A stretch of 45,026 nt of DNA from UHGV virus genome UHGV-1710001. One strand, written 5' to 3'. The notes beneath the pieces were generated by a model. It was not told the DNA's origin, did no database searches, and saw only the letters and a list, made by a program, of their open reading frames with translations. Below are positions 2,323 through 23,409 of the stretch, piece after piece; the stretch's first letter is position 1, and every line of letters begins with the position of its first letter. Both the position numbers and the translations under genes were made by a program. The DNA is from a virus.

Positions 2323-3242
2323 CCAGAATCACTGAAGAGCGTATATCAGAGATTATTTCCCGTATCGAAATGTATGGTCACGGTGCTGGATATACGGCAG
2401 ATGAAGTATTGGCACTTGCCCAAATGGTTTTGGCGGCTTGCAAAGATGATAAAAAAATGAAGTTTATCGACTTGTTAGTGAAGGAGCTGCCTAAGTGCGG
2501 CGGGTGGCCTGATGGAATGAGTTATTGTTACCTACCCAGTGTCAATTTAATGGCACCATGCGCGACTTTTGCTTTTGGCTCAGACCACAAAAAAGACACT
2601 TTCTTTGGGCGCAATTTTTGTTGTGATATTGAGCTTCCAATTGGTGACCTTGATAGCGATGAATACCAGTCAGTTGTCACTCGCGAACAATACGAATCAG
2701 CTCTCATAGCGTCGCAGAAAGTCGAGTTCAATGGTGATGAACTTGAAAGTAAGACTTACAGGTTGGATTTTGGGCAATGGCTGGAACAGCAACGCGGGAA
2801 AATCGATGTGGACTGTGGTTGTGTGTCCACTGAAACATTCATGCACTGGCTGCGGGTAGCTTACGAGGCTGGCAACTATCCGGATATTCCGGATAGTTCG
2901 GTGCCAGCGCCAGGAAAGGGCGTCACCGGTGAACGTATCCGCATTAAGCCGCATGTTTATCGCGAACTGGTTAACCGTCTCCACGATACAGCGATCAAGT
3001 GTGCTGGCACCCAGCAATTACGAGAAAGAATTAGCCGTGTTTTGGGCGACGTTATTACGCCATATCATCATAAACAAGCCGAGAAAAGCGGTCTGGAAAG
3101 GTGTCGCCTTGAGGCGGCATTAAACATTAAGCCGGGGCATACGCTTGGCATTATTGATGCACTATTGGTTCATAAGATGGCCAGGGCTTTATTGCCGCTG
3201 GTGGCTGAAAAGCATGAGGTGGACCATGCCAACGAAAGCTGA
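2304..3242 (+). CDS. hypothetical protein (312 aa)
   Basis: Long ORF co-oriented with neighbours; no recognisable motif. Confidence 0.45.
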   Translation: MAQKEMTRITEERISEIISRIEMYGHGAGYTADEVLALAQMVLAACKDDKKMKFIDLLVKELPKCGGWPDGMSYCYLPSVNLMAPCATFAFGSDHKKDTFFGRNFCCDIELPIGDLDSDEYQSVVTREQYESALIASQKVEFNGDELESKTYRLDFGQWLEQQRGKIDVDCGCVSTETFMHWLRVAYEAGNYPDIPDSSVPAPGKGVTGERIRIKPHVYRELVNRLHDTAIKCAGTQQLRERISRVLGDVITPYHHKQAEKSGLERCRLEAALNIKPGHTLGIIDALLVHKMARALLPLVAEKHEVDHANES

Positions 3243-3510
3243 ATTACAGGTGCGCGTAGATGAGCTTGAAAAAGAGAACGCGAGCCTCAAAAAAATGCTG
3301 TCGCGGGCGGAAAGGGAATTATCAGGCAAATTATTGCCAGAAGAACTGCCACCAGCAGATATACCTGATCGAGTGTCCTGGTGGATGAAGTATTTCCGTG
3401 CACCGTGGGAGGCGTTTTGGTGCTACGACCATCGCAGATGGTGTGATGAACTTGATAGCAATTTTCCCTACTTTGCGGAAGGGAACACCTGCCCTCAATG
3501 CAGGGGATAG
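3226..3510 (+). CDS. hypothetical coiled-coil protein (94 aa)
   Basis: ATG 3226 preceded by GAGGTGG; the 3145 start in the ORF track overlaps the preceding gene by about 100 nt; heptad-like ELQVRVDELEKENASLKKMLSRAERELS. Confidence 0.35.
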   Translation: MPTKAELQVRVDELEKENASLKKMLSRAERELSGKLLPEELPPADIPDRVSWWMKYFRAPWEAFWCYDHRRWCDELDSNFPYFAEGNTCPQCRG

Positions 3511-3845
3511 CATTTGACGAAATCGATCACCCTATCCTGAACTTCAGAAAGAAGGTCTTTTTCACGCGCCAGGACGTCAGGATATTGACGTTCTGGCCTT
3601 ACCAGATGCCGGAGCTTCCCATTAAGCAGAATGGCCTCAGAAAACACTTTTACGCTGTGCTTTATCCCCTCTGTTTCACTTTTCAGCGTCAAAATAAAGC
3701 GCAATTGCTTATTAGCCTGATTCGGATTCAATACACGAATTTGCAGTTCGTCTATGCTGTTCCGCAATGGGATTGATGCTACCACACTGGTGCAGTCTCT
3801 GATTGTCTGAATTGAACGGCTAACATTGAGAACGTTATTGTGCAT
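3495..3845 (-). CDS. hypothetical protein (116 aa), divergent from hot
   Basis: Minus-strand ORF in the interval before hot; no motif recognised. Confidence 0.3.
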   Translation of the reverse strand: MHNNVLNVSRSIQTIRDCTSVVASIPLRNSIDELQIRVLNPNQANKQLRFILTLKSETEGIKHSVKVFSEAILLNGKLRHLVRPERQYPDVLAREKDLLSEVQDRVIDFVKCYPLH

Positions 3846-3877
3846 GTGCCTGATCCACTAACTCCTGGAGGTTTCTT

Positions 3878-4129
3878 GTGTCAGATCGAAATATAGCAGC
3901 TAAAAGCCAGGAAGAGCGAGACAAGGTGAACGTAGACCTTGCCGCCAGCGGCGTTGCTTACAAAGAACGGCTGAATATACCTGTGATTGCAGAGCAGGTG
4001 GCTCGTGAGCAACCGGAAAACCTGCGCGCCTATTTCATGGAACGGCTACGGCACTACCGGCAGTTAAGCCTCCAGTTGCCAAAAGGGAGCGATCCGGTGT
4101 ATCAGAACGAGGATGCACCAAAAAAATAA
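3878..4129 (+). CDS. hot: DNA polymerase III theta-subunit (HolE) homolog
   Basis: 83-aa ORF with GTG start after CTGGAGG RBS; segment [33 protein letters not shown] closely matches recalled E. coli HolE ([27 protein letters not shown]). Confidence 0.7.
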
Positions 4130-4214
4130 CGGCAAGATGGGGGAGAAATGTGATTAGCCCCCAGCGTGGCGCGCCTACAAACCCCGCTTTCACAAACTAT
4201 GCCTTTTCAATGTA

Positions 4215-4234
4215 TACTGTATGAATAAACAGTA
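4215..4234. promoter_or_regulatory. LexA (SOS) box upstream of humD
   Basis: TACTGTATGAATAAACAGTA matches CTGT-N8-ACAG with consensus flanks TACTGT...ACAGTA; lies about 20 bp upstream of the humD start. Confidence 0.7.
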
Positions 4235-4252
4235 TCATTGAGGTAAAACGCT

Positions 4253-4642
4253 ATGGGCTTCCCTTCTCCTGCGGCGGATTATGTTGAAAGCCGAATTTCT
4301 CTTGATCAGCAGATAATTAGACATCCTTCAGCGACCTACTTCATGCGGGCAGCTGATAGCCATCACCGTGAGGGAATATTGCAGGGAGCTTTGCTGGTGG
4401 TTGATTCCTCGCTTACTCCGGTTGATGGTTCTCTGCTTGTGTGCGCTATGGAGGGTGAATATCGCATAAAGAGATACAGGAAGTATCCGCGCCAGCACCT
4501 GGAGGACTTAAGCACCGGGAAGAAAGAGGCGTTACCAGTAGATGACGATGGATACACGGGCAGCAATGCTGTTTTTGGTGTGATCACTCATGTCATCAAT
4601 GATGCCCGAAGTGGGGAGTTTGATGATTGTCCGGTTATTTAA
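4253..4642 (+). CDS. humD: UmuD-like S24 peptidase / translesion-synthesis accessory protein
   Basis: 129-aa ORF with LexA/UmuD-type C-terminal domain; preceded by a LexA box as in P1 humD. Confidence 0.75.
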   Translation: MGFPSPAADYVESRISLDQQIIRHPSATYFMRAADSHHREGILQGALLVVDSSLTPVDGSLLVCAMEGEYRIKRYRKYPRQHLEDLSTGKKEALPVDDDGYTGSNAVFGVITHVINDARSGEFDDCPVI

Positions 4643-4683
4643 GCTGCAAAGGGCTGGTGCTTTATACCTGTGAAGTTTATAAT

Positions 4684-4707
4684 TGTGTACACATAACGAG
4701 TACATGA
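4684..4707. promoter_or_regulatory. phd-doc operator palindromes
   Basis: Perfect 10-bp palindrome TGTGTACACA followed by a GAGTACATG half-site directly upstream of phd. Confidence 0.5.
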
Positions 4708-4714
4708 GGTGTTT

Positions 4715-4936
4715 ATGCAATCCATTAACTTCCGTACCGCGCGCGGCAACCTTTCTGAAGTGCTCAACAATGTTGAAGCCGGGGAAGAGGTTGAAATCAC
4801 CCGCAGAGGCCGTGAGCCAGCAGTAATTGTCAGCAAGGCTACTTTTGAAGCCTACAAAAAAGCGGCGCTGGATGCTGAATTTGCATCCCTGTTTGACACC
4901 CTGGACTCCACCAACAAGGAACTGGTTAACCGATAA
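4715..4936 (+). CDS. phd: Phd antitoxin (prevent host death)
   Basis: 73-aa product [39 protein letters not shown]... matches recalled P1 Phd; stop overlaps the doc start by 1 nt (TAATG). Confidence 0.9.
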
Positions 4937-5316
4937 TGAGGCATATATCACCGGAAGAACTTATTGCGCTTCATGATGCGAATATAAACCGCTACGGCGG
5001 CCTGCCGGGAATGTCTGATCCGGGTAGGGCAGAGGCCATTATCGGGAGAGTTCAGGCCAGAGTTGCCTACGAAGAGATCACCGACCTTTTCGAAGTCTCC
5101 GCCACCTACCTGGTGGCTACAGCGAGAGGGCATATATTCAATGATGCCAATAAGCGTACCGCGCTAAACAGTGCGCTGCTATTTCTACGCCGTAACGGGG
5201 TGCAGGTATTTGATTCACCTGAACTGGCAGACCTTACCGTAGGGACTGCGACAGGCGAGATATCTGTATCTACTGTCGCCGCCACGTTACGTAGATTGTA
5301 TGGTTCTGCGGAGTAG
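4936..5316 (+). CDS. doc: Doc toxin (Fic-fold kinase, death on curing)
   Basis: 126-aa product [39 protein letters not shown]... matches recalled P1 Doc; classic phd-doc arrangement. Confidence 0.9.
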
Positions 5317-5320
5317 ATTA

Positions 5321-5500
5321 ATGGCACGCAAATACAACAAATTGTCCCGTGAAGCGTTAAAGATGCTTCTTGATGGCGTGAGTCGCCGCAAGGTAAAGCA
5401 ATACCTGGTTGGTAAGCAAATTGGAGTCAGGACCGCTATTGCTGTGTTATGCCGTCAGGAAATGGTTGTGCTTAAACAGAGAATGCCGGGCAGCAGATAA
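5321..5500 (+). CDS. small basic protein downstream of doc (possible P1 pdcA equivalent)
   Basis: ATG 5321 just after the doc stop with GGAG 8 nt upstream; 59 aa, Lys/Arg-rich; pdcA assignment is by position only. Confidence 0.35.
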   Translation: MARKYNKLSREALKMLLDGVSRRKVKQYLVGKQIGVRTAIAVLCRQEMVVLKQRMPGSR

Positions 5501-5527
5501 AGCCCAATCAGTGATTAAAGGTGTGAT

Positions 5528-6571
5528 GTGAAAGCCGTAATTACTCCCTTTGTACAGAAAGAGCTTGGCCTCGCCACGTTCAAAGTGGATCAGGAGGTCA
5601 GAAAGCTGGTGGAGGCTGGCCGTAAATTTATTATGGAGCCGGTGCCGCGTGAGTTAATCGAGCACATGGAAGACGGCCTCGTTGTTACCGAGCAAACCAT
5701 GGCAACAAATGAGGCGTTGCAGCCGTTTTTTAACAGCGATGAACTGTTTCGCCGTATTGGTGGAATTGACTCGCTGGTGGCGTGGTTGCGCAGGAAAGAG
5801 GGGCAATGCCAGGCCGCAGATCGTAGCTGGTGTGACAACCATATTGTCCACGCAGAACGAGACAATAGCGCGGTGTTGTTGTGCTGGCATCACGATAACC
5901 ATTACCGGATGCGTGGTTTTAATGAGCTGAAAGAAACGCTGCACAATAATCGCGTTAACTGGATACTGGATGTCGCCCGTCAGGAAATGGGCCTTTCAAA
6001 TAGCCATGATTTAAGTATTCAGGAGCTGTGCTGGTGGGCTTTCATGCGCAACATGATGCACCTGATGCCGGAAGAAGTCTGCCGCATATCAATAAATAAG
6101 ATGAAGGCTACTCCGCAGGATAGCGGACCTCTGAAAGAGGCGGATATTCGCCCGTATGACGATCGCGCTACAGCATATGTTCAGATGATGGAAGAACGCG
6201 CCGCGCCGATGCGTGCAAAAGTATGCCCTGTGGATGTTGACTCCGACCCAGGTATGGCGCATTTCAAAATACCAAAACTTCAATCGCTAAAATTGCCCGA
6301 GTACATGGACTTTGTGGCTTCCCGTCCATGCTGTGGCTGTGGAGCTGCGGGAGCTGGCGCTCACATTACGCCTTATATCGTTCGTCATAGTCGATTATGC
6401 GCGCATGACATTTATGCTATTCCTCTGTGCCAGTCATGCCAGCGTGATATTGAGCGTGACCGCGATAATTGGGAGAAGACGCACGGTAGGCTGGCGATGC
6501 ATCAACGATTGTTCTTTGATTACGCGCTTGGAGTCGGCGCTATCACAAGTCACTCGTCGAGCGTTAGATAA
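5528..6571 (+). CDS. hypothetical Cys/His-rich protein (possible P1 pdcB equivalent)
   Basis: 347-aa ORF with GTG start; C-terminal cluster CCGCG...[15 protein letters not shown] and His-rich segment [26 protein letters not shown] suggest metal binding. Confidence 0.5.
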
Positions 6572-7197: not shown

Positions 7198-8391
7198 GTG
7201 ACCTGGGACGATCACAAGAAGAATTTTGCTCGCCTGGCGCGAGATGGTGGTTACACCATCGCACAGTATGCCGCCGAGTTTAATCTTAACCCTAATACTG
7301 CACGTCGTTATCTCCGTGCCTTCAAAGAAGACACCAGGACAGCGGACAGCCGCAAGCCAAATAAGCCAGTCAGGAAGCCACTAAAAAGCATGATCATTGA
7401 TCACTCTAATGATCAACATGCAGGTGATCACATTGCGGCTGAAATAGCGGAAAAACAAAGGGTTAATGCCGTTGTCAGTGCCGCAGTCGAGAACGCTAAG
7501 CGCCAAAATAAGCGCATAAATGATCGTTCTGATGATCATGACGTGATCATCCGCGCCCACCGTACCTTACGTGATCGCCTGGAACGCGACACCCTGGATG
7601 ATGATGGTGAACGCTTTGAATTCGAAGCTGGCGATTACCTGATAGATAACGTTGAAGCGCGGAAGGCCGCGCGCGCTATGTTGCGTCGGTCCGGGGCCGA
7701 TGTTCTGGAAACCACTCTTCTGGAAAAGTCTCTTTCTCATCTCCTTATGCTGGAGAACGCCAGGGATACGTGTATTCGCCTGGTGCAGGAAATGCGCGAT
7801 CAGCAAAAAGACGATGATGAAGGTACTCCGCCTGAATACCGTATCGCGAGCATGCTAAACAGCTGTTCCGCGCAGATAAGCAGCCTGATCAACACCATTT
7901 ACAGCATCCGGAATAACTATCGAAAAGAAAGCCGGGAGGCGGAAAAGCACGCTTTGTCTATGGGGCAAGCTGGCATTGTTAAGCTGGCATACGAACGAAA
8001 GCGTGAAAATAACTGGTCAGTGCTGGAAGCAGCTGAATTCATCGAGGCGCATGGCGGGAAAGTGCCGCCCCTGATGCTGGAGCAAATCAAAGCCGATCTG
8101 CGTGCTCCTAAGACCAATACCGATGATGAGGAAAGGCAAACTGCCGTCGGTGGCCCTTCTCTTGAAGATCTGGACAAAGTTGCGCGAGAACGGGCCGCCA
8201 ACCGCCGCGCCGATGCCGCATTGTGGATTGAGCAACGTAGGGAAGAAATCGCCGATATCGTTGATACAGGCGGTTATGGAGATGTTGATACTGAAGGTGT
8301 ATCAAACGACCCATGGCTGGAACAAGACCTGGACGAAGACGAGGAGGAAGACGAAGAAGTTACCCGCAAGCTATACGGGGATGATGATTAA
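7198..8391 (+). CDS. pacA: terminase small subunit PacA
   Basis: 397-aa ORF with GTG start, N-terminal HTH-like segment, acidic C-terminus; contains the pac site; size matches recalled P1 PacA. Confidence 0.8.
7391..7549. promoter_or_regulatory. pac packaging site with hexanucleotide repeats containing Dam GATC sites
   Basis: Four TGATCA hexamers at about 7391, 7398, 7410 and 7425 and three TGATC(A/G) at about 7521, 7533 and 7544, separated by about 90 bp; matches the 4+3 architecture of P1 pac. Confidence 0.75.
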
Positions 8392-9875
8392 TGGCCAGAA
8401 GTTGCGTAACGGATCCACGTTGGCGCGAGCTGGTGGCGCTATATCGTTATGACTGGATTGCGGCCGCTGATGTTTTGTTCGGCAAAACACCTACCTGGCA
8501 GCAGGATCTGATTATTGAGTCTGTGCAGGAACAGGGTAGCAAGACATCTGTTTCGTCTGGTCACGGTACCGGGAAATCAGACATGACTTCTATCATGATC
8601 ATGTTGTTCATAATCATGTATCCCGGTGCCCGCGCCATTATCGTTGCGAACAAAATTCAGCAGGTAATGACCGGTATATTCAAGTACATCAAGATAAACT
8701 GGGCTACTGCCACCAGCCGTTTTCCATGGCTTGCTGATTATTTTGTTCTGACAGAAACCGCTTTCTATGAGGTTACTGGTAAAGGTGTATGGACTGTAGT
8801 ACCGAAGGGCTTTCGTCTGGGAAGTGAAGAAGCTCTCGCCGGTGAACACGCAGATCATCTTCTGTATATTATCGATGAAGCCTCCGGTGTCAGTGATAGA
8901 GCTTTCGGTATCATCACCGGTGCTCTTACCGGACAGGATAACCGCATCTTATTACTGTCACAGCCTACACGCCCAAGCGGCTATTTCTACGATACTCACC
9001 ATAAACTGGCCAAGCGTCCTGGTAACCCAGATGGCGTTTATACGGCGATCACGCTTAACAGTGAGGAATCACCGCTGGTAACGCCAGAATTTATCAAAAT
9101 GAAGCTGGCGGAGTACGGCGGGCGTGATAACCCTATGTACATGATTAAGGTACGCGGGCTATTCCCTAAATCACAGGACGGCTTCCTTCTTGGACGTGAT
9201 GAGGTTGAACGTGCGACGCGGCGGAAAGTCAAGATTGCCAAAGGATGGGGCTGGCTTGCATGTGTGGACGTTGCTGGTGGTACAGGACGGGATAAGTCCG
9301 TTATCAATATCATGATGGTGTCCGGCCAGCGAAATAAACGCCGTGTAATCAACTATCGAATGCTGGAATACACAGACGTTACAGAAACGCAGCTTGCCGC
9401 CAAAATTTTCGCAGAATGTAATCCTGAGCGATTCCCCAATATCACCATAGCGATAGACGGCGATGGCCTGGGTAAAGCAACGGCGGATCTGATGTACGAG
9501 TATTATGGTATTACCGTACAGCGTATACGCTGGGGTAAAAAGATGCATAGCCGTGAAGATAAGAGCCTGTACTTTGATAAACGTGCTTATGCCAATGTTC
9601 AAGCCGCAGAGGCCGTAAAATCTGGTCGTATGAGACTGGATAAGGGTAATGAAACTATTGAGGAAGCGTCGAAAATCCCTGTAGGGATTAACTCCGCAGG
9701 TCAATGGAAGGTGATGAGTAAGGAGGATATGAAGAAAAAACTCAACCTGCACTCACCAGACCATTGGGATACATATTGTTTCGCTATGCTGGCGGATTAT
9801 GTTCCCCAGGATGAAGTGCTTAGCGTCGAAGACGAAGCGCAGGTTGATGAAGCTCTGGCATGGCTTAATGAATGA
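8391..9875 (+). CDS. pacB: terminase large subunit PacB
   Basis: 494-aa ORF overlapping the pacA stop; Walker A SGHGTGKS, Walker [11 protein letters not shown]. Confidence 0.8.
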
Positions 9876-19250: not shown

Positions 19251-20282
19251 ATGTCCAATTTACTGACCGTACACCAAAATTTGCCTGCATTACCGGTCGA
19301 TGCAACGAGTGATGAGGTTCGCAAGAACCTGATGGACATGTTCAGGGATCGCCAGGCGTTTTCTGAGCATACCTGGAAAATGCTTCTGTCCGTTTGCCGG
19401 TCGTGGGCGGCATGGTGCAAGTTGAATAACCGGAAATGGTTTCCCGCAGAACCTGAAGATGTTCGCGATTATCTTCTATATCTTCAGGCGCGCGGTCTGG
19501 CAGTAAAAACTATCCAGCAACATTTGGGCCAGCTAAACATGCTTCATCGTCGGTCCGGGCTGCCACGACCAAGTGACAGCAATGCTGTTTCACTGGTTAT
19601 GCGGCGGATTCGAAAAGAAAACGTTGATGCCGGTGAACGTGCAAAACAGGCATTGGCGTTCGAACGCACTGATTTCGACCAGGTTCGTTCACTCATGGAA
19701 AATAGCGATCGCTGCCAGGATATACGGAATCTGGCATTTCTGGGGATTGCTTATAACACCCTGTTACGTATAGCCGAAATTGCCAGGATCAGGGTTAAAG
19801 ATATCTCACGTACTGACGGTGGGAGAATGTTAATCCATATTGGCAGAACGAAAACGCTGGTTAGCACCGCAGGTGTAGAGAAGGCACTTAGCCTGGGGGT
19901 AACTAAACTGGTCGAGCGATGGATTTCTGTCTCTGGTGTGGCTGATGATCCGAATAACTACCTGTTTTGCCGTGTCAGAAAAAATGGTGTTGCCGCGCCA
20001 TCTGCCACCAGCCAGCTATCAACTCGCGCTCTGGAAGGGATTTTTGAAGCAACTCATCGATTGATTTACGGCGCTAAGGATGACTCTGGGCAGAGATACC
20101 TGGCCTGGTCTGGACACAGTGCCCGTGTCGGAGCCGCGCGAGATATGGCCCGCGCCGGAGTTTCAATACCGGAGATCATGCAAGCTGGTGGCTGGACCAA
20201 CGTAAATATTGTCATGAACTATATCCGTAACCTGGATAGTGAAACAGGGGCAATGGTGCGCCTGCTGGAAGATGGCGATTAG
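19251..20282 (+). CDS. cre: Cre tyrosine site-specific recombinase
   Basis: 343-aa product beginning MSNLLTVHQNLPALPVDATSDEVRKNLMDMFRDRQAFSEHTWKMLLSVCRSWAAWCKLNNRKWFPAEPEDVRDYLLYLQARGLAVKTIQQHLGQLNMLHRRSGLPRPSDSNAVSLVMRRIRKENVDAGERAK..., as recalled for P1 Cre; adjacent loxP. Confidence 0.97.
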   Translation: MSNLLTVHQNLPALPVDATSDEVRKNLMDMFRDRQAFSEHTWKMLLSVCRSWAAWCKLNNRKWFPAEPEDVRDYLLYLQARGLAVKTIQQHLGQLNMLHRRSGLPRPSDSNAVSLVMRRIRKENVDAGERAKQALAFERTDFDQVRSLMENSDRCQDIRNLAFLGIAYNTLLRIAEIARIRVKDISRTDGGRMLIHIGRTKTLVSTAGVEKALSLGVTKLVERWISVSGVADDPNNYLFCRVRKNGVAAPSATSQLSTRALEGIFEATHRLIYGAKDDSGQRYLAWSGHSARVGAARDMARAGVSIPEIMQAGGWTNVNIVMNYIRNLDSETGAMVRLLEDGD

Positions 20283-21628: not shown

Positions 21629-22270
21629 ATGGATAAGAAAATATGCGTTGTTTCGATGAGCGTCGGCAAACCGGCGTCAATGACTGCTGCATGGATCAAT
21701 AACGAGCTGATAATGGCTGAGCGGACCAGCTACCCTGAACGCCGCCGCGATATGGAACTCCAGCTGCTGCGCGAATTGCGAGAAAAAGAGGAAAAGGGTT
21801 TTATCGTGCTGGTGGAAGAGGAAAACAGCTTTATTACTGGTCGAGTTGGCCAGCGTGTAAGGTTGCGCGATCCCTTCATGAACGGCAGGCCGGTACTAAT
21901 TGAGGCAATGCAGATTTATAAGGAGCTGGAACGCCAGAAAGCAATCAAGTTACCGCGCAAGGAATCCGGCAAATACATTCTCCACCAAAGCATCTTCGAT
22001 TCCGAACACGATAAAAAAGGCGATGAATTTTTCAACATCAACTGGAGCGAAATAACGACAGAGCATGTTCTGACGTTACTATGTTGCTTTGCGACGGAAT
22101 ACAACAACGTTGCCAGCGCCGACTACATCAGGGCAATGGCTGGAGAAGTTGAGGCCCGCCAAGAACCATCGTTACTAAGTCCACTGATTAACATAATTCT
22201 GGGTACCCAGACACTGGAACAAAAAAAAGTGCCGAAAGGGGTATTAACAGGCAAGCATAATTATTTCTAA
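21629..22270 (+). CDS. hypothetical protein (possible Mat equivalent)
   Basis: 213-aa product from ATG 21629; the upstream GTG at 21482 lies inside the promoter-like motif. Confidence 0.45.
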   Translation: MDKKICVVSMSVGKPASMTAAWINNELIMAERTSYPERRRDMELQLLRELREKEEKGFIVLVEEENSFITGRVGQRVRLRDPFMNGRPVLIEAMQIYKELERQKAIKLPRKESGKYILHQSIFDSEHDKKGDEFFNINWSEITTEHVLTLLCCFATEYNNVASADYIRAMAGEVEARQEPSLLSPLINIILGTQTLEQKKVPKGVLTGKHNYF

Positions 22271-22437
22271 TAATTTATAGTGGGGACTTTTGATGGTGTA
22301 AAACCCCATGAATTATTATTTTTTAGTTTTTTGATTCTATTTTTTTTTGCATTACCCGTCATAAAAATGAGCTTGCTTACATAATAGAAAATTATTTTAT
22401 CAACACTATTACAACAAACGATTATCACTGATAACAT

Positions 22438-22461
22438 GAGTCCTTTGAAAACAAAGGACTC
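22438..22461. promoter_or_regulatory. perfect 10-bp inverted repeat (GAGTCCTTTG-AAAA-CAAAGGACTC) abutting the GNAT start
   Basis: Seen directly; right arm contains the only AAGGA RBS-like sequence 10 nt before ATG 22470, so the hairpin would occlude the RBS; could also be a protein-binding operator. Confidence 0.5.
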
Positions 22462-22469
22462 ACCATACT

Positions 22470-23078
22470 ATGTCTAATACCTCGGCAAATGAAATTGTAC
22501 CGCACTTACCGCTAATTTTCGAAAATGAAGCTAATGGGATTCTTCAGGATCTGGCCTATACTCCATCGCTTATGGGGTTGATGATGTTCCCGACAGAAGA
22601 GGAGCTGAAAGCAGCGAGAAGCTACATAATTAACGTTTTTGAAGAGTGTTACCGAGCCGGTCATTTGCGCATTATGGGCTTTACTAATGAAGAAAACTTG
22701 TTCGGATACGCCTTAATCTTCGGACATCCATCGGGAAATTTTCCGTTGTACTGTCATAAAATATATGTATATGAGCAATATCGTGGTAATGGACTTGGAA
22801 GTAATATACTGGCAGAAATACTTGCATTTCCAAATGAGGTCGCTTTGATTTGCCAGTCTGATTTGGTTCCTTTTTATGAATCAGCCGGAATGCACTTTAA
22901 AGGAAATTACACCACTCCATCAGTCGCCAATTTCAAAAAAACTCGCGGCATGTATGAGGGGCTTTGTTTGATGAGCACTGAAAAAAATGCAAACTCTAAT
23001 GGTGTACCTATATTCATGCTGAACGATAACGATATTGATAACATCATACAGGCTATCGCATCATCGGAACCACGATAA
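22470..23078 (+). CDS. GNAT-family N-acetyltransferase
   Basis: 202-aa ORF; acetyl-CoA binding motif A YEQYRGNGLGSNIL (R/Q-x-x-G-x-G/A) and motif B LVPFYESAGMHFKG; flanked by AT-rich DNA. Confidence 0.65.
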   Translation: MSNTSANEIVPHLPLIFENEANGILQDLAYTPSLMGLMMFPTEEELKAARSYIINVFEECYRAGHLRIMGFTNEENLFGYALIFGHPSGNFPLYCHKIYVYEQYRGNGLGSNILAEILAFPNEVALICQSDLVPFYESAGMHFKGNYTTPSVANFKKTRGMYEGLCLMSTEKNANSNGVPIFMLNDNDIDNIIQAIASSEPR

Positions 23079-23132
23079 TATTAATAATTCATCTCGCCGC
23101 AGGAACTACAAACCAGTTGATTGTTTGTGAAA

Positions 23133-23151
23133 CGCCCGGTGCAAACCGGGC
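23133..23151 (-). terminator. hairpin downstream of the minus-strand darB-146aa-82aa operon
   Basis: GCCCGG-TGCAAA-CCGGGC immediately after the stop of the 82-aa gene; weak U-tract. Confidence 0.3.
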
Positions 23152-23160
23152 CAACAAAAC

Positions 23161-23409
23161 TCAATCAGCATTGAGAAGCAATGCATTATCTATGATGATC
23201 TGCTCCCATTCTTCGAATGCCCGGTCGCGGACGCCCTGGGGAACACTGTTTGTTTTGAAATCGACGACTGTACGCCATTTCCCGTCCGGACGGTACATGC
23301 GCAGAGCTTTACTTCCCCCTTCCCTGCGCACCTCAACGTTATGCTTGTCAGCAAACTCTTGTAATGCTCGTAGCGTCCCATGCTTTACTGTGTAGTATCG
23401 CTTTTTCAA
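23161..23409 (-). CDS. small protein downstream of darB (possible Lxc equivalent)
   Basis: 82-aa ORF, last gene of the darB operon; 4-nt overlap with the upstream gene; assignment by position and size only. Confidence 0.4.
   Translation of the reverse strand: MKKRYYTVKHGTLRALQEFADKHNVEVRREGGSKALRMYRPDGKWRTVVDFKTNSVPQGVRDRAFEEWEQIIIDNALLLNAD

Follow-up and report, generated by a model that had tools for sequence, protein, structure and literature searches.

A solitary GNAT-family acetyltransferase gene in the res-mod slot of a P1-like phage-plasmid is a candidate one-gene conflict enzyme

What is a solitary acetyltransferase gene doing at the position where phage P1 carries its type III restriction-modification system, res-mod? 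The question is raised by the virus genome UHGV-1710001 (45,026 nucleotides; 'the window' hereafter means this whole stretch), in which the interval from the mat stop to the lxc stop (22271-23160), the variable cargo interval of a P1-like phage-plasmid, encodes a single 202-amino acid GNAT-family N-acetyltransferase (22470-23078, plus strand; hereafter the GNAT). From the sequence and the predicted structure we have high confidence that the product is a folded and catalytically intact acetyl-CoA-dependent N-acetyltransferase in a one-gene cassette of a swappable slot. We are similarly confident that it belongs to a small GNAT subfamily of Gammaproteobacteria that is nearly always carried on mobile elements or located in defence islands. 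The purpose of such an enzyme is a more tentative matter. Our preferred reading, to which we assign a probability of about 0.45, is that it may be a one-gene phage-host conflict enzyme that benefits the lysogen, is more likely to act in defence than in counter-defence and probably acetylates a cationic amine target. We therefore regard the gene, in its known swap slot, as a candidate, open to experimental test, for a new form of one-gene immunity or counter-immunity.

The mat-lxc slot and its occupants

In BLAST comparisons with P1, RCS47 and SJ46 the backbone match broke off at 22215-22272 and was back at 23163, and because homology is lost and restored at these points, the segment singled out by an earlier, sequence-only reading of this DNA can be equated with the variable interval. 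To its left lie Cre (19251-20282), a C8-like open reading frame (ORF), Ref and the maturation control gene mat (21629-22270, plus strand), which is annotated in near-identical plasmids and matches P1 mat at 96% identity as far as 22215. To its right lies lxc (23161-23409, minus strand), which encodes a C1 modulator and is 98% identical to P1; it is the first gene of the lxc-ulx-darB block, which includes a 2255-amino acid DarB and runs on the minus strand, convergent with the GNAT gene. The premise of the sequence-only reading, that P1 has res-mod between mat and lxc, proved correct: reference P1 carries res (3544-6456) and mod::IS5 there, and the GNAT gene is absent from both P1 and P7. One gene does fill the slot, the 202-codon ORF with YEQYRGNGLGSNIL and PFYESAGMHF, and no other ORF of at least 60 amino acids is present within the mat-lxc interval, so that the gene is indeed solitary. 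The surroundings are AT-rich as described: the GC content is 50% over the whole window but drops to 40% in the gene and to 28% in its 199-bp leader. A 56-amino acid ORF on the minus strand (22267-22437) falls slightly below the size limit; it was rejected as a partner gene, being unannotated in relatives and lying almost entirely in leader DNA that is absent from the second allele described below.

Two comparative papers on P1-like elements report the res-mod interval as hypervariable and low in GC, naming it variable region 1 (PMC9603915) or RD-1 (PMC6906374). We surveyed 707 plasmid records that match the flanks and tested representative cargos against PADLOC. The cargos listed include RelA/SpoT, SIR2, PIN, DUF2971 and YaaC proteins and the GNAT. 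SIR2 cargo matched the PDC-S25 and ThsA-like models, PIN cargo matched PDC-S34, DUF2971 cargo matched PDC-S31 and the RelA/SpoT cargo (CapRel) matched PDC-S33; a YaaC pair from the slot had no PADLOC match. The slot of the Salmonella phage SJ46 holds a 373-amino acid RelA/SpoT protein identical to PDB 7ZTB, which is CapRelSJ46, a validated defence protein described as an antiphage toxSAS (bioRxiv 10.64898/2026.04.06.716658) and a tRNA-targeting fused toxin-antitoxin. The slot of RCS47 is empty (43 bp). The suggestion that this is a defence locus is thus supported by its other occupants, res-mod, CapRelSJ46 and the SIR2, PIN and DUF2971 proteins.

The 890-bp interval had no match in 50,697 phage records, P1, P7, SJ46 and RCS47 included. 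It was found in 22 plasmids of E. coli, E. fergusonii and Salmonella, 19 of which have it at full length with at least 97% identity, and the GNAT is therefore present in approximately 3% of P1-like plasmids (~22/707). Among 5426 complete E. coli genomes it occurs in 19 (0.35%), on a plasmid of 91-110 kb every time, and 14 viral contigs in IMG/VR have members of the family. It had been suggested from the sequence that an acetyltransferase would be unusual cargo at this locus. This view could not be upheld, as the slot is already published as hypervariable, the gene recurs in P1-like plasmids, it is annotated in RefSeq and forms phrog_10454, and a near-identical structure (PDB 9S30) has been solved.

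A second allele, with 84% protein identity and a synonymous divergence (dS) of ~0.6, occupies the same mat-lxc slot in plasmids of E. albertii (pESA138_1; 3043-3648 of locus L017) and E. coli (pUTME-12-1; 3003-3608 of locus L018). Only the gene and approximately 47 nt of 5' untranslated region are common to this allele and the window; the leader is shorter and unrelated, and the 3' flank is different. Two alleles in one slot would imply that this gene family was captured there more than once independently, or that one copy replaced another. The gene has also been disrupted naturally. In pHYEC7-mcr1 (KX518745; 8484-13233 of locus L002), Tn6330 (ISApl1-mcr-1-pap2-ISApl1) is inserted at codon 95, which corresponds to window positions 22753-22755 within the invariant YCHK motif, and the gene halves on either side have a 3-nt overlap at the junction. 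Because the mcr-1 transposon splits the gene in this plasmid, the GNAT gene is dispensable for it. This makes pHYEC7-mcr1 a natural GNAT knockout on a circulating colistin-resistance plasmid.

At the right-hand end of the slot, a GC-rich hairpin, GCCCGG-TGCAAA-CCGGGC (23134-23151), lies between the convergent GNAT and lxc genes and is likely to be a terminator shared by them; it has no T-run and was hence not flagged by a simple terminator scan. A GC-rich hairpin is found directly beyond the lxc stop in each slot variant compared. In three of the four (the window, RCS47 and the E. albertii second-allele plasmid) the GCCCGG/CCGGGC stems are identical and the loops are different, and SJ46 has a different hairpin at the equivalent place. 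The terminator past the lxc stop seems to mark the right-hand recombination boundary. An AT-rich 16-nt inverted repeat, 88% complementary, also brackets the GNAT gene (22308-22323 and 23077-23092). It was considered as a pair of transposon ends and rejected, as it is AT-rich and outside the segment common to both alleles, and we treat it as a chance occurrence.

The acetyltransferase, its family and its neighbours

The GNAT matches Pfam Acetyltransf_10 at 27.3 bits (gathering score 23.6) and Acetyltransf_1 at 25.6 bits (gathering score 20.7) and is a member of phrog_10454 (202 residues, function unknown in PHROG). An AlphaFold2 model (pLDDT 88) predicts a GNAT fold, a single domain extended by a long helix at the N-terminus and a further helix at the C-terminus; among the viral structures of BFVD, only generic GNATs were matched, with TM < 0.5. 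Chain A of PDB 9S30, deposited as 'GNAT family N-acetyltransferase', is one residue off the window protein. The entry is missing from a fold library that covers releases up to 2026-04-08, and it must therefore be a very recent release. The single difference is at codon 200 (23067-23069), which encodes Glu in the window and Ala in 9S30 and in two other aligned plasmids of the window's allele (allele 1); Glu200 is also all that separates the window protein from the copy in pCFSAN004176P_03. As Ala200 occurs naturally and the 9S30 chain has no active-site substitution, the crystallized protein was apparently produced as the wild type.

An alignment of 18 homologues contained 47 invariant residues. 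These include R105, G106, G108 and G110 of the acetyl-CoA motif A (Q/R-x-x-G-x-G/A; here R105-G-N-G108-L-G110) as well as H96, E102 and Y136. Other conserved features of the family are YCHK (94-97), PFYE-AG, an N-terminal helix with LPxIFENEAxGILQDL and a C-terminal PIFMLND-DI helix. Matches to characterized profiles were weak, the best being serotonin N-acetyltransferase (AANAT; 6.6e-5) and SSAT1/2 (~3e-4 to 1e-3), with plant NATA1 and an integron-cassette GNAT as further matches. H96 aligns with the second His of the AANAT HLH motif and Y136 with the Tyr of PFY, residues that we take to be His122 and Tyr168 of the AANAT catalytic site. According to its title, the AANAT entry 1L0C deals with the catalytic residues of that enzyme. 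The window protein has a net charge of -10 and an isoelectric point (pI) of 4.87, and all 18 homologues are acidic too (pI 4.3-5.9, computed from sequence).

The family is small, with 23 clusters at 90% identity among 5.8 billion proteins and 57 clusters at 50% identity with E < 1e-10 among 1.84 billion proteins. Every named member is gammaproteobacterial and carries no annotation beyond GNAT, and the gene has been kept intact across elements of Escherichia, Salmonella, Klebsiella, Serratia, Raoultella and Pseudomonas. The ratio of non-synonymous to synonymous substitution rates (dN/dS) between alleles is about 0.14 (range 0.13-0.16), which indicates purifying selection. The sequence-only reading had allowed that the ORF might be a non-expressed remnant; the dN/dS values and the invariant residues speak instead for an intact, selected gene. 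On this comparison of sequences, the GNAT is a catalytically equipped enzyme rather than a remnant, and we infer that it is expressed.

To examine the surroundings of the homologues, one genome per species was scanned, giving 8 loci; ORFs within 8 kb were considered, so that 123 neighbours were scanned and the large ones checked individually. Defence genes lay within 8 kb of the homologue at six of the eight species-representative loci from Pseudomonas and Serratia. One Pseudomonas locus (L029) has the defence-associated sirtuin Dsr1 (E = 0) 60 nt downstream of the homologue and MkoA of Mokosh upstream, another (L030) has GajA with GajB of Gabija, and two (L031 and L032) have PsyrT with PsyrA and an adjacent multiubiquitin/E1/DUF6527 set. 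A fifth (L033) has PtuA/PDC-M01A with PDC-M01B, which are Septu-like, and an AbiJ-like protein next door. The sixth locus is from Serratia (L034), with a weaker match to PDC-S49. Of the remaining two, both from Serratia, one (L028) gave a weak mad8 match only and the other, a phage-plasmid (L027), had no defence neighbours. Both the company kept in the P1 slot and six of the eight loci, admittedly a small sample, thus place the family among defence genes.

Several of these loci merit further description. In Pseudomonas sp. ERMR1:02 (L029, 9956-14387) the homologue, 45% identical to the window protein, has the same orientation as Dsr1, whose coding sequence is broken into two ORFs; the GNAT and Dsr1 might share a transcript there. 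In Pseudomonas syringae and P. petroselini (L031, 7227-10543; L032, 5567-8866) the homologue comes directly after the genes for multiubiquitin, E1 (ThiF/DUF6791) and DUF6527, with PsyrTA near, and this set is a ubiquitin-like conjugation conflict system adjoining the GNAT. The two Serratia chromosomal loci (L028 and L034) resemble integrative and conjugative elements (ICEs), carrying an orphan C-5 methylase together with DUF4400, DUF3438 and LPD38 domains. Beyond these, the GNAT of a Raoultella lambdoid prophage is an opposite-strand moron adjoining HicAB-like genes, and that of a Klebsiella IncFII plasmid is near McrBC. A distant member (E 1.9e-37) was found on two metagenome contigs (L025 and L026, ~8001-8636) amid Dot/Icm type IVB secretion genes (IcmW, DotM_C), and it is a possibility that some relatives of the family are secreted effectors.

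A neighbour common to these settings was sought as a possible partner. Across the P1 slot, Klebsiella IncFII, Raoultella prophage, Serratia-type phage-plasmid, Pseudomonas and Dot/Icm contexts, there was no conserved neighbour and no gene for a ribbon-helix-helix (RHH) or DUF1778 protein. The neighbours contained no antitoxin domains, and near-identical plasmids have no partner gene annotated. The candidates considered were 95- and 149-amino acid ORFs translationally coupled upstream of the gene in the Serratia-type phage-plasmid, a 168-amino acid ORF upstream in Pseudomonas and a 270-amino acid ORF downstream at three Pseudomonas loci; all were rejected, their domains being uninformative and their occurrence context-specific. 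In the Serratia-type phage-plasmid (L014, 6599-8603), which has a P7-like C1 repressor, the start of the GNAT overlaps the end of the 95-amino acid ORF by 8 nt, and two genes further upstream is a 176-amino acid protein with a faint Acetyltransf_3 match. This arrangement may be an operon of a kind not seen in the P1 slot.

The leader and its hairpin

In the AT-rich leader (22271-22469, plus strand) the sigma-70-like matches are weak; one of them is TTGATG-18-TATTAT at 22290-22319. The sequence-only reading had described a perfect 10-bp inverted repeat here, ending 9 nt before the start codon. The repeat is real, as are its AAAA loop and the AAGGA within it; its arms, however, are 11 nt long (22437-22447 and 22452-22462, plus strand), and the distance from the 10-bp arm to the ATG is 8 nt, not 9. 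The AAGGA, a Shine-Dalgarno-like motif read directly from the sequence at 22454-22458, is 11 nt before the ATG and is buried in the 3' arm of the perfect 11-bp stem. The predicted RNA fold of the 71-nt region around the hairpin has an energy of -17.9 kcal/mol (z = -4.6), and none of 200 shuffled sequences folded as well. The hairpin 24-mer is unique in the window (chance expectation 0), and the Shine-Dalgarno zone of the GNAT is the second most occluded among the 30 long ORFs of the window. The hairpin could not be interpreted as a terminator, having no T-run, or as a repeated element, being unique.

The hairpin is invariant in three aligned allele-1 copies (the window, a ~99.9% copy and a 97.3% copy), whereas neither the second allele nor the more distant homologues have it. 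The homologues have GAAGG(A/G) at a normal spacing of 7-8 nt with weak alternative pairings only. Occlusion of the Shine-Dalgarno motif was rejected as a trait of the family, as the homologues are merely slightly under the window median for accessibility. The proposal of translational or operator control may hold for allele 1, in which the ribosome-binding site is occluded, but the hairpin is not a control element of the family as a whole. As far as the sequence can tell, the hairpin reads as an allele-specific damper of translation and possibly as an operator. A weak antisense promoter-like match overlaps it.

The 13-codon upstream ORF (uORF) that was reported to overlap the start codon exists (22436-22477, plus strand; MSPLKTKDSPYYV followed by a stop codon). 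Its ATG is ATC in the second allele, the 97% allele has a Pro-to-Ser change, and no Shine-Dalgarno-like GGAG or AAGGA lies directly upstream of it; it is probably a chance ORF. The further suggestion, that a small antitoxin peptide or sRNA might be found in 22271-22469 or in the hairpin, found no support, as the leader has no match in Rfam, the 56-amino acid ORF is unannotated and the uORF and hairpin are unconserved.

With respect to regulation by the phage, no C1 operator match (at most 3 mismatches) lies near ref or mat or upstream of the GNAT, and no Lpa late-promoter box is present in the GNAT leader. Six sites elsewhere in the window match the P1 C1 operator consensus ATTGCTCTAATAAATTT at this threshold (6573, 9879, 12547, 13011, 13094 and 34427). 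Terminator prediction gave nothing between mat and the GNAT gene, so that transcripts from the mat promoters, which are C1-controlled and late, may run on into it. A poly-T tract (22340-22348, plus strand), ~120 nt upstream of the start codon, varies in length between plasmids, with nine T in the window and pCFSAN004176P_03, eight in three other plasmids and seven in p15648-1. These differences may reflect a phase-variable promoter context or a homopolymer sequencing error.

Proposed function and comparison with known systems

We propose that in the lysogen transcription of the GNAT gene would start in its own AT-rich leader and would be independent of the C1 and late-promoter circuits of P1, and that in this allele the hairpin would keep translation low by burying the Shine-Dalgarno motif. 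The enzyme would then acetylate a primary amine on a positively charged target, which could be a polyamine- or arylalkylamine-like small molecule or a basic protein; an acidic family is what would be expected of an enzyme acting on cationic substrates. Acetylation would hinder an invading phage or other mobile element, so protecting the lysogen, and the function would parallel that of the other slot occupants, EcoP1 restriction-modification, CapRelSJ46 and the SIR2, PIN and DUF2971 proteins. A bolder version, which we advance quite tentatively, is that the GNAT is the founding member of a new single-protein family of anti-phage immunity, whose target would be an amine of a phage component or of a metabolite required by the phage. 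Immunity through GNAT acetylation is a mechanism that is not represented in PADLOC-DB v2 (2023).

A number of observations weigh against a defensive role. The GNAT itself has no match to any PADLOC-DB v2 model at E values up to 1 and no known phenotype, and a full-text literature search found no paper on the protein or on 9S30. The link to defence islands rests on a raw count over eight loci, whose homologues are 40-76% identical to the window protein. The gene is dispensable for persistence of the plasmid, as pHYEC7-mcr1 demonstrates. Finally, the homologue in Serratia ICE-like regions has an LPD38 polyvalent-protein domain and the orphan C-5 methylase as its neighbours, and a homologue in a Pseudomonas element is near DUF4942. 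Such settings are typical of counter-defence or establishment genes.

These last observations lead to one alternative, in which the acetyltransferase disables either an immune protein of the host or an immune signal that bears an amine, and so aids establishment or lytic growth, as AcrVA5 does by acting on Cas12a. This acetyltransferase anti-CRISPR of a prophage provides a precedent (PMC13131331). The GNAT gene also adjoins lxc-ulx-darB, whose products are annotated as a Ulx-like anti-restriction protein and DarB, 'defense against restriction', and read-through from the mat promoters may occur. We nevertheless consider counter-defence unlikely, because the other occupants of the slot that were tested and could be classified are defence genes rather than anti-defence genes, because the five Pseudomonas chromosomal homologues, including the one 60 nt from Dsr1, are in islands where defence genes cluster, and because the Raoultella prophage copy is oriented against the lytic operon, as is typical of genes expressed in the lysogen. 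The sequence-only reading raised a different conflict function, a translation-blocking toxin of the TacT/AtaT/ItaT type that acetylates aminoacyl-tRNA. Such a toxin would need a cryptic antitoxin, whether a small peptide, an sRNA or the hairpin with the uORF. The solitary gene, its strongly occluded ribosome-binding site, the antisense promoter-like match and the tRNA-targeting activity of CapRelSJ46 in the same slot could all be fitted to this idea. The activity of TacT relies on exposed positive residues, and its purification needed co-expression of the antitoxin (PMC5959882). The GNAT family, by contrast, is uniformly acidic and has no recurring partner, RHH or DUF1778 genes included. Its hairpin and uORF are unconserved and without an Rfam match, the AlphaFold2 model shows no additional domain of the sort that a fused antitoxin would require, and the 9S30 chain carries no substitution in its active site, its one difference being natural. 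When sequences and structures were compared, GNAT toxins were not among the nearest matches. The toxin reading is accordingly very unlikely.

Another possibility is that the enzyme has nothing to do with phage conflict and is ordinary plasmid cargo that detoxifies an amine; aminoglycoside-like antibiotics, aminoacyl nucleotides of the microcin type, polyamines and other xenobiotics would be examples. Its nearest characterized profile relatives (AANAT, SSAT1/2, NATA1 and the integron-cassette GNAT) are small-molecule amine acetyltransferases, and it is carried on plasmids of clinical and livestock Enterobacterales. The acidity of the protein would also fit, since many enzymes that act on cationic drugs or polyamines are acidic. 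Against this, its best NCBIfam scores were 12-13 bits, compared with cut-offs of 86-171, the gene in pCFSAN004176P_03 is not flagged as a resistance gene in the AMRFinder layer of PLSDB, and detoxification leaves its systematic siting in defence slots and islands unexplained; we regard this explanation as doubtful. It is less probable still that the GNAT is a neutral hitchhiker, intact yet of no benefit in Escherichia and kept since the slot tolerates any insert. Disruption of the gene by Tn6330, its rarity in E. coli and the presence in databases of truncated family forms of 159-182 amino acids would agree with this explanation. It is difficult to reconcile with the low dN/dS, with the invariance of residues that include the cofactor motif or with the retention of an intact gene across elements of six genera. 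In addition, the two alleles in the same slot with different flanks point to repeated acquisition or retention.

If the GNAT does protect lysogens, as our preferred reading has it, stand-alone acetylation by a GNAT would join the known chemistries of bacterial immunity, and the mat-lxc slot, from which CapRel has already come, would be a productive place for one-gene defence systems. P1-like phage-plasmids, with mcr-1 and extended-spectrum beta-lactamase genes among the genes they carry, are widespread in Enterobacterales of clinical and livestock origin, and their cargo affects which phages, therapeutic phages included, infect their hosts. A direct test is feasible with one 0.9-kb cassette, three obvious catalytic residues and an existing crystal structure.

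The GNAT can be compared with several characterized systems. With the GNAT toxins (TacT, AtaT, ItaT and KacT) it shares the GNAT fold, the acetyl-CoA motif A and frequent carriage on mobile elements; they have a positively charged tRNA-binding surface and an RHH antitoxin, whereas the window family is acidic and has no adjacent RHH antitoxin, and its protein was apparently made for crystallography in its wild-type form. The catalytic His and Tyr motifs of AANAT are conserved in the GNAT as H96 and Y136, but similarity to AANAT, SSAT1/2 and NATA1 is limited to ~75 core residues (E ~1e-4), and three features are particular to the GNAT family: the N-terminal helix, the YCHK signature and, at the C-terminus, the PIFMLND-DI helix. 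AcrVA5 is likewise a single small prophage-borne acetyltransferase of phage-host conflict, which acetylates a lysine of an immune protein (PMC13131331); it comes from Moraxella and is 92 residues long, does not figure in the lists of PDB sequence or fold matches to the GNAT and acts in counter-defence, whereas the context of the GNAT leans to defence. The EcoP1I res-mod system of P1, the reference occupant of the slot, also lies in low-GC DNA with its own sigma-70 promoters (PMC9603915; PMC6906374), but it is a two-gene, 6-kb type III nuclease and methylase on the opposite strand, and the proteins are unrelated. CapRelSJ46 offers a parallel in arrangement, with an unrelated fold and chemistry. 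It is a RelA/SpoT pyrophosphokinase with a C-terminal antitoxin/sensor domain that matches a PADLOC model, whereas the GNAT has a single domain and matches none; yet both are single genes with their own leader, in the same orientation in exactly the same mat-lxc slot, and each is followed by a terminator hairpin before lxc.

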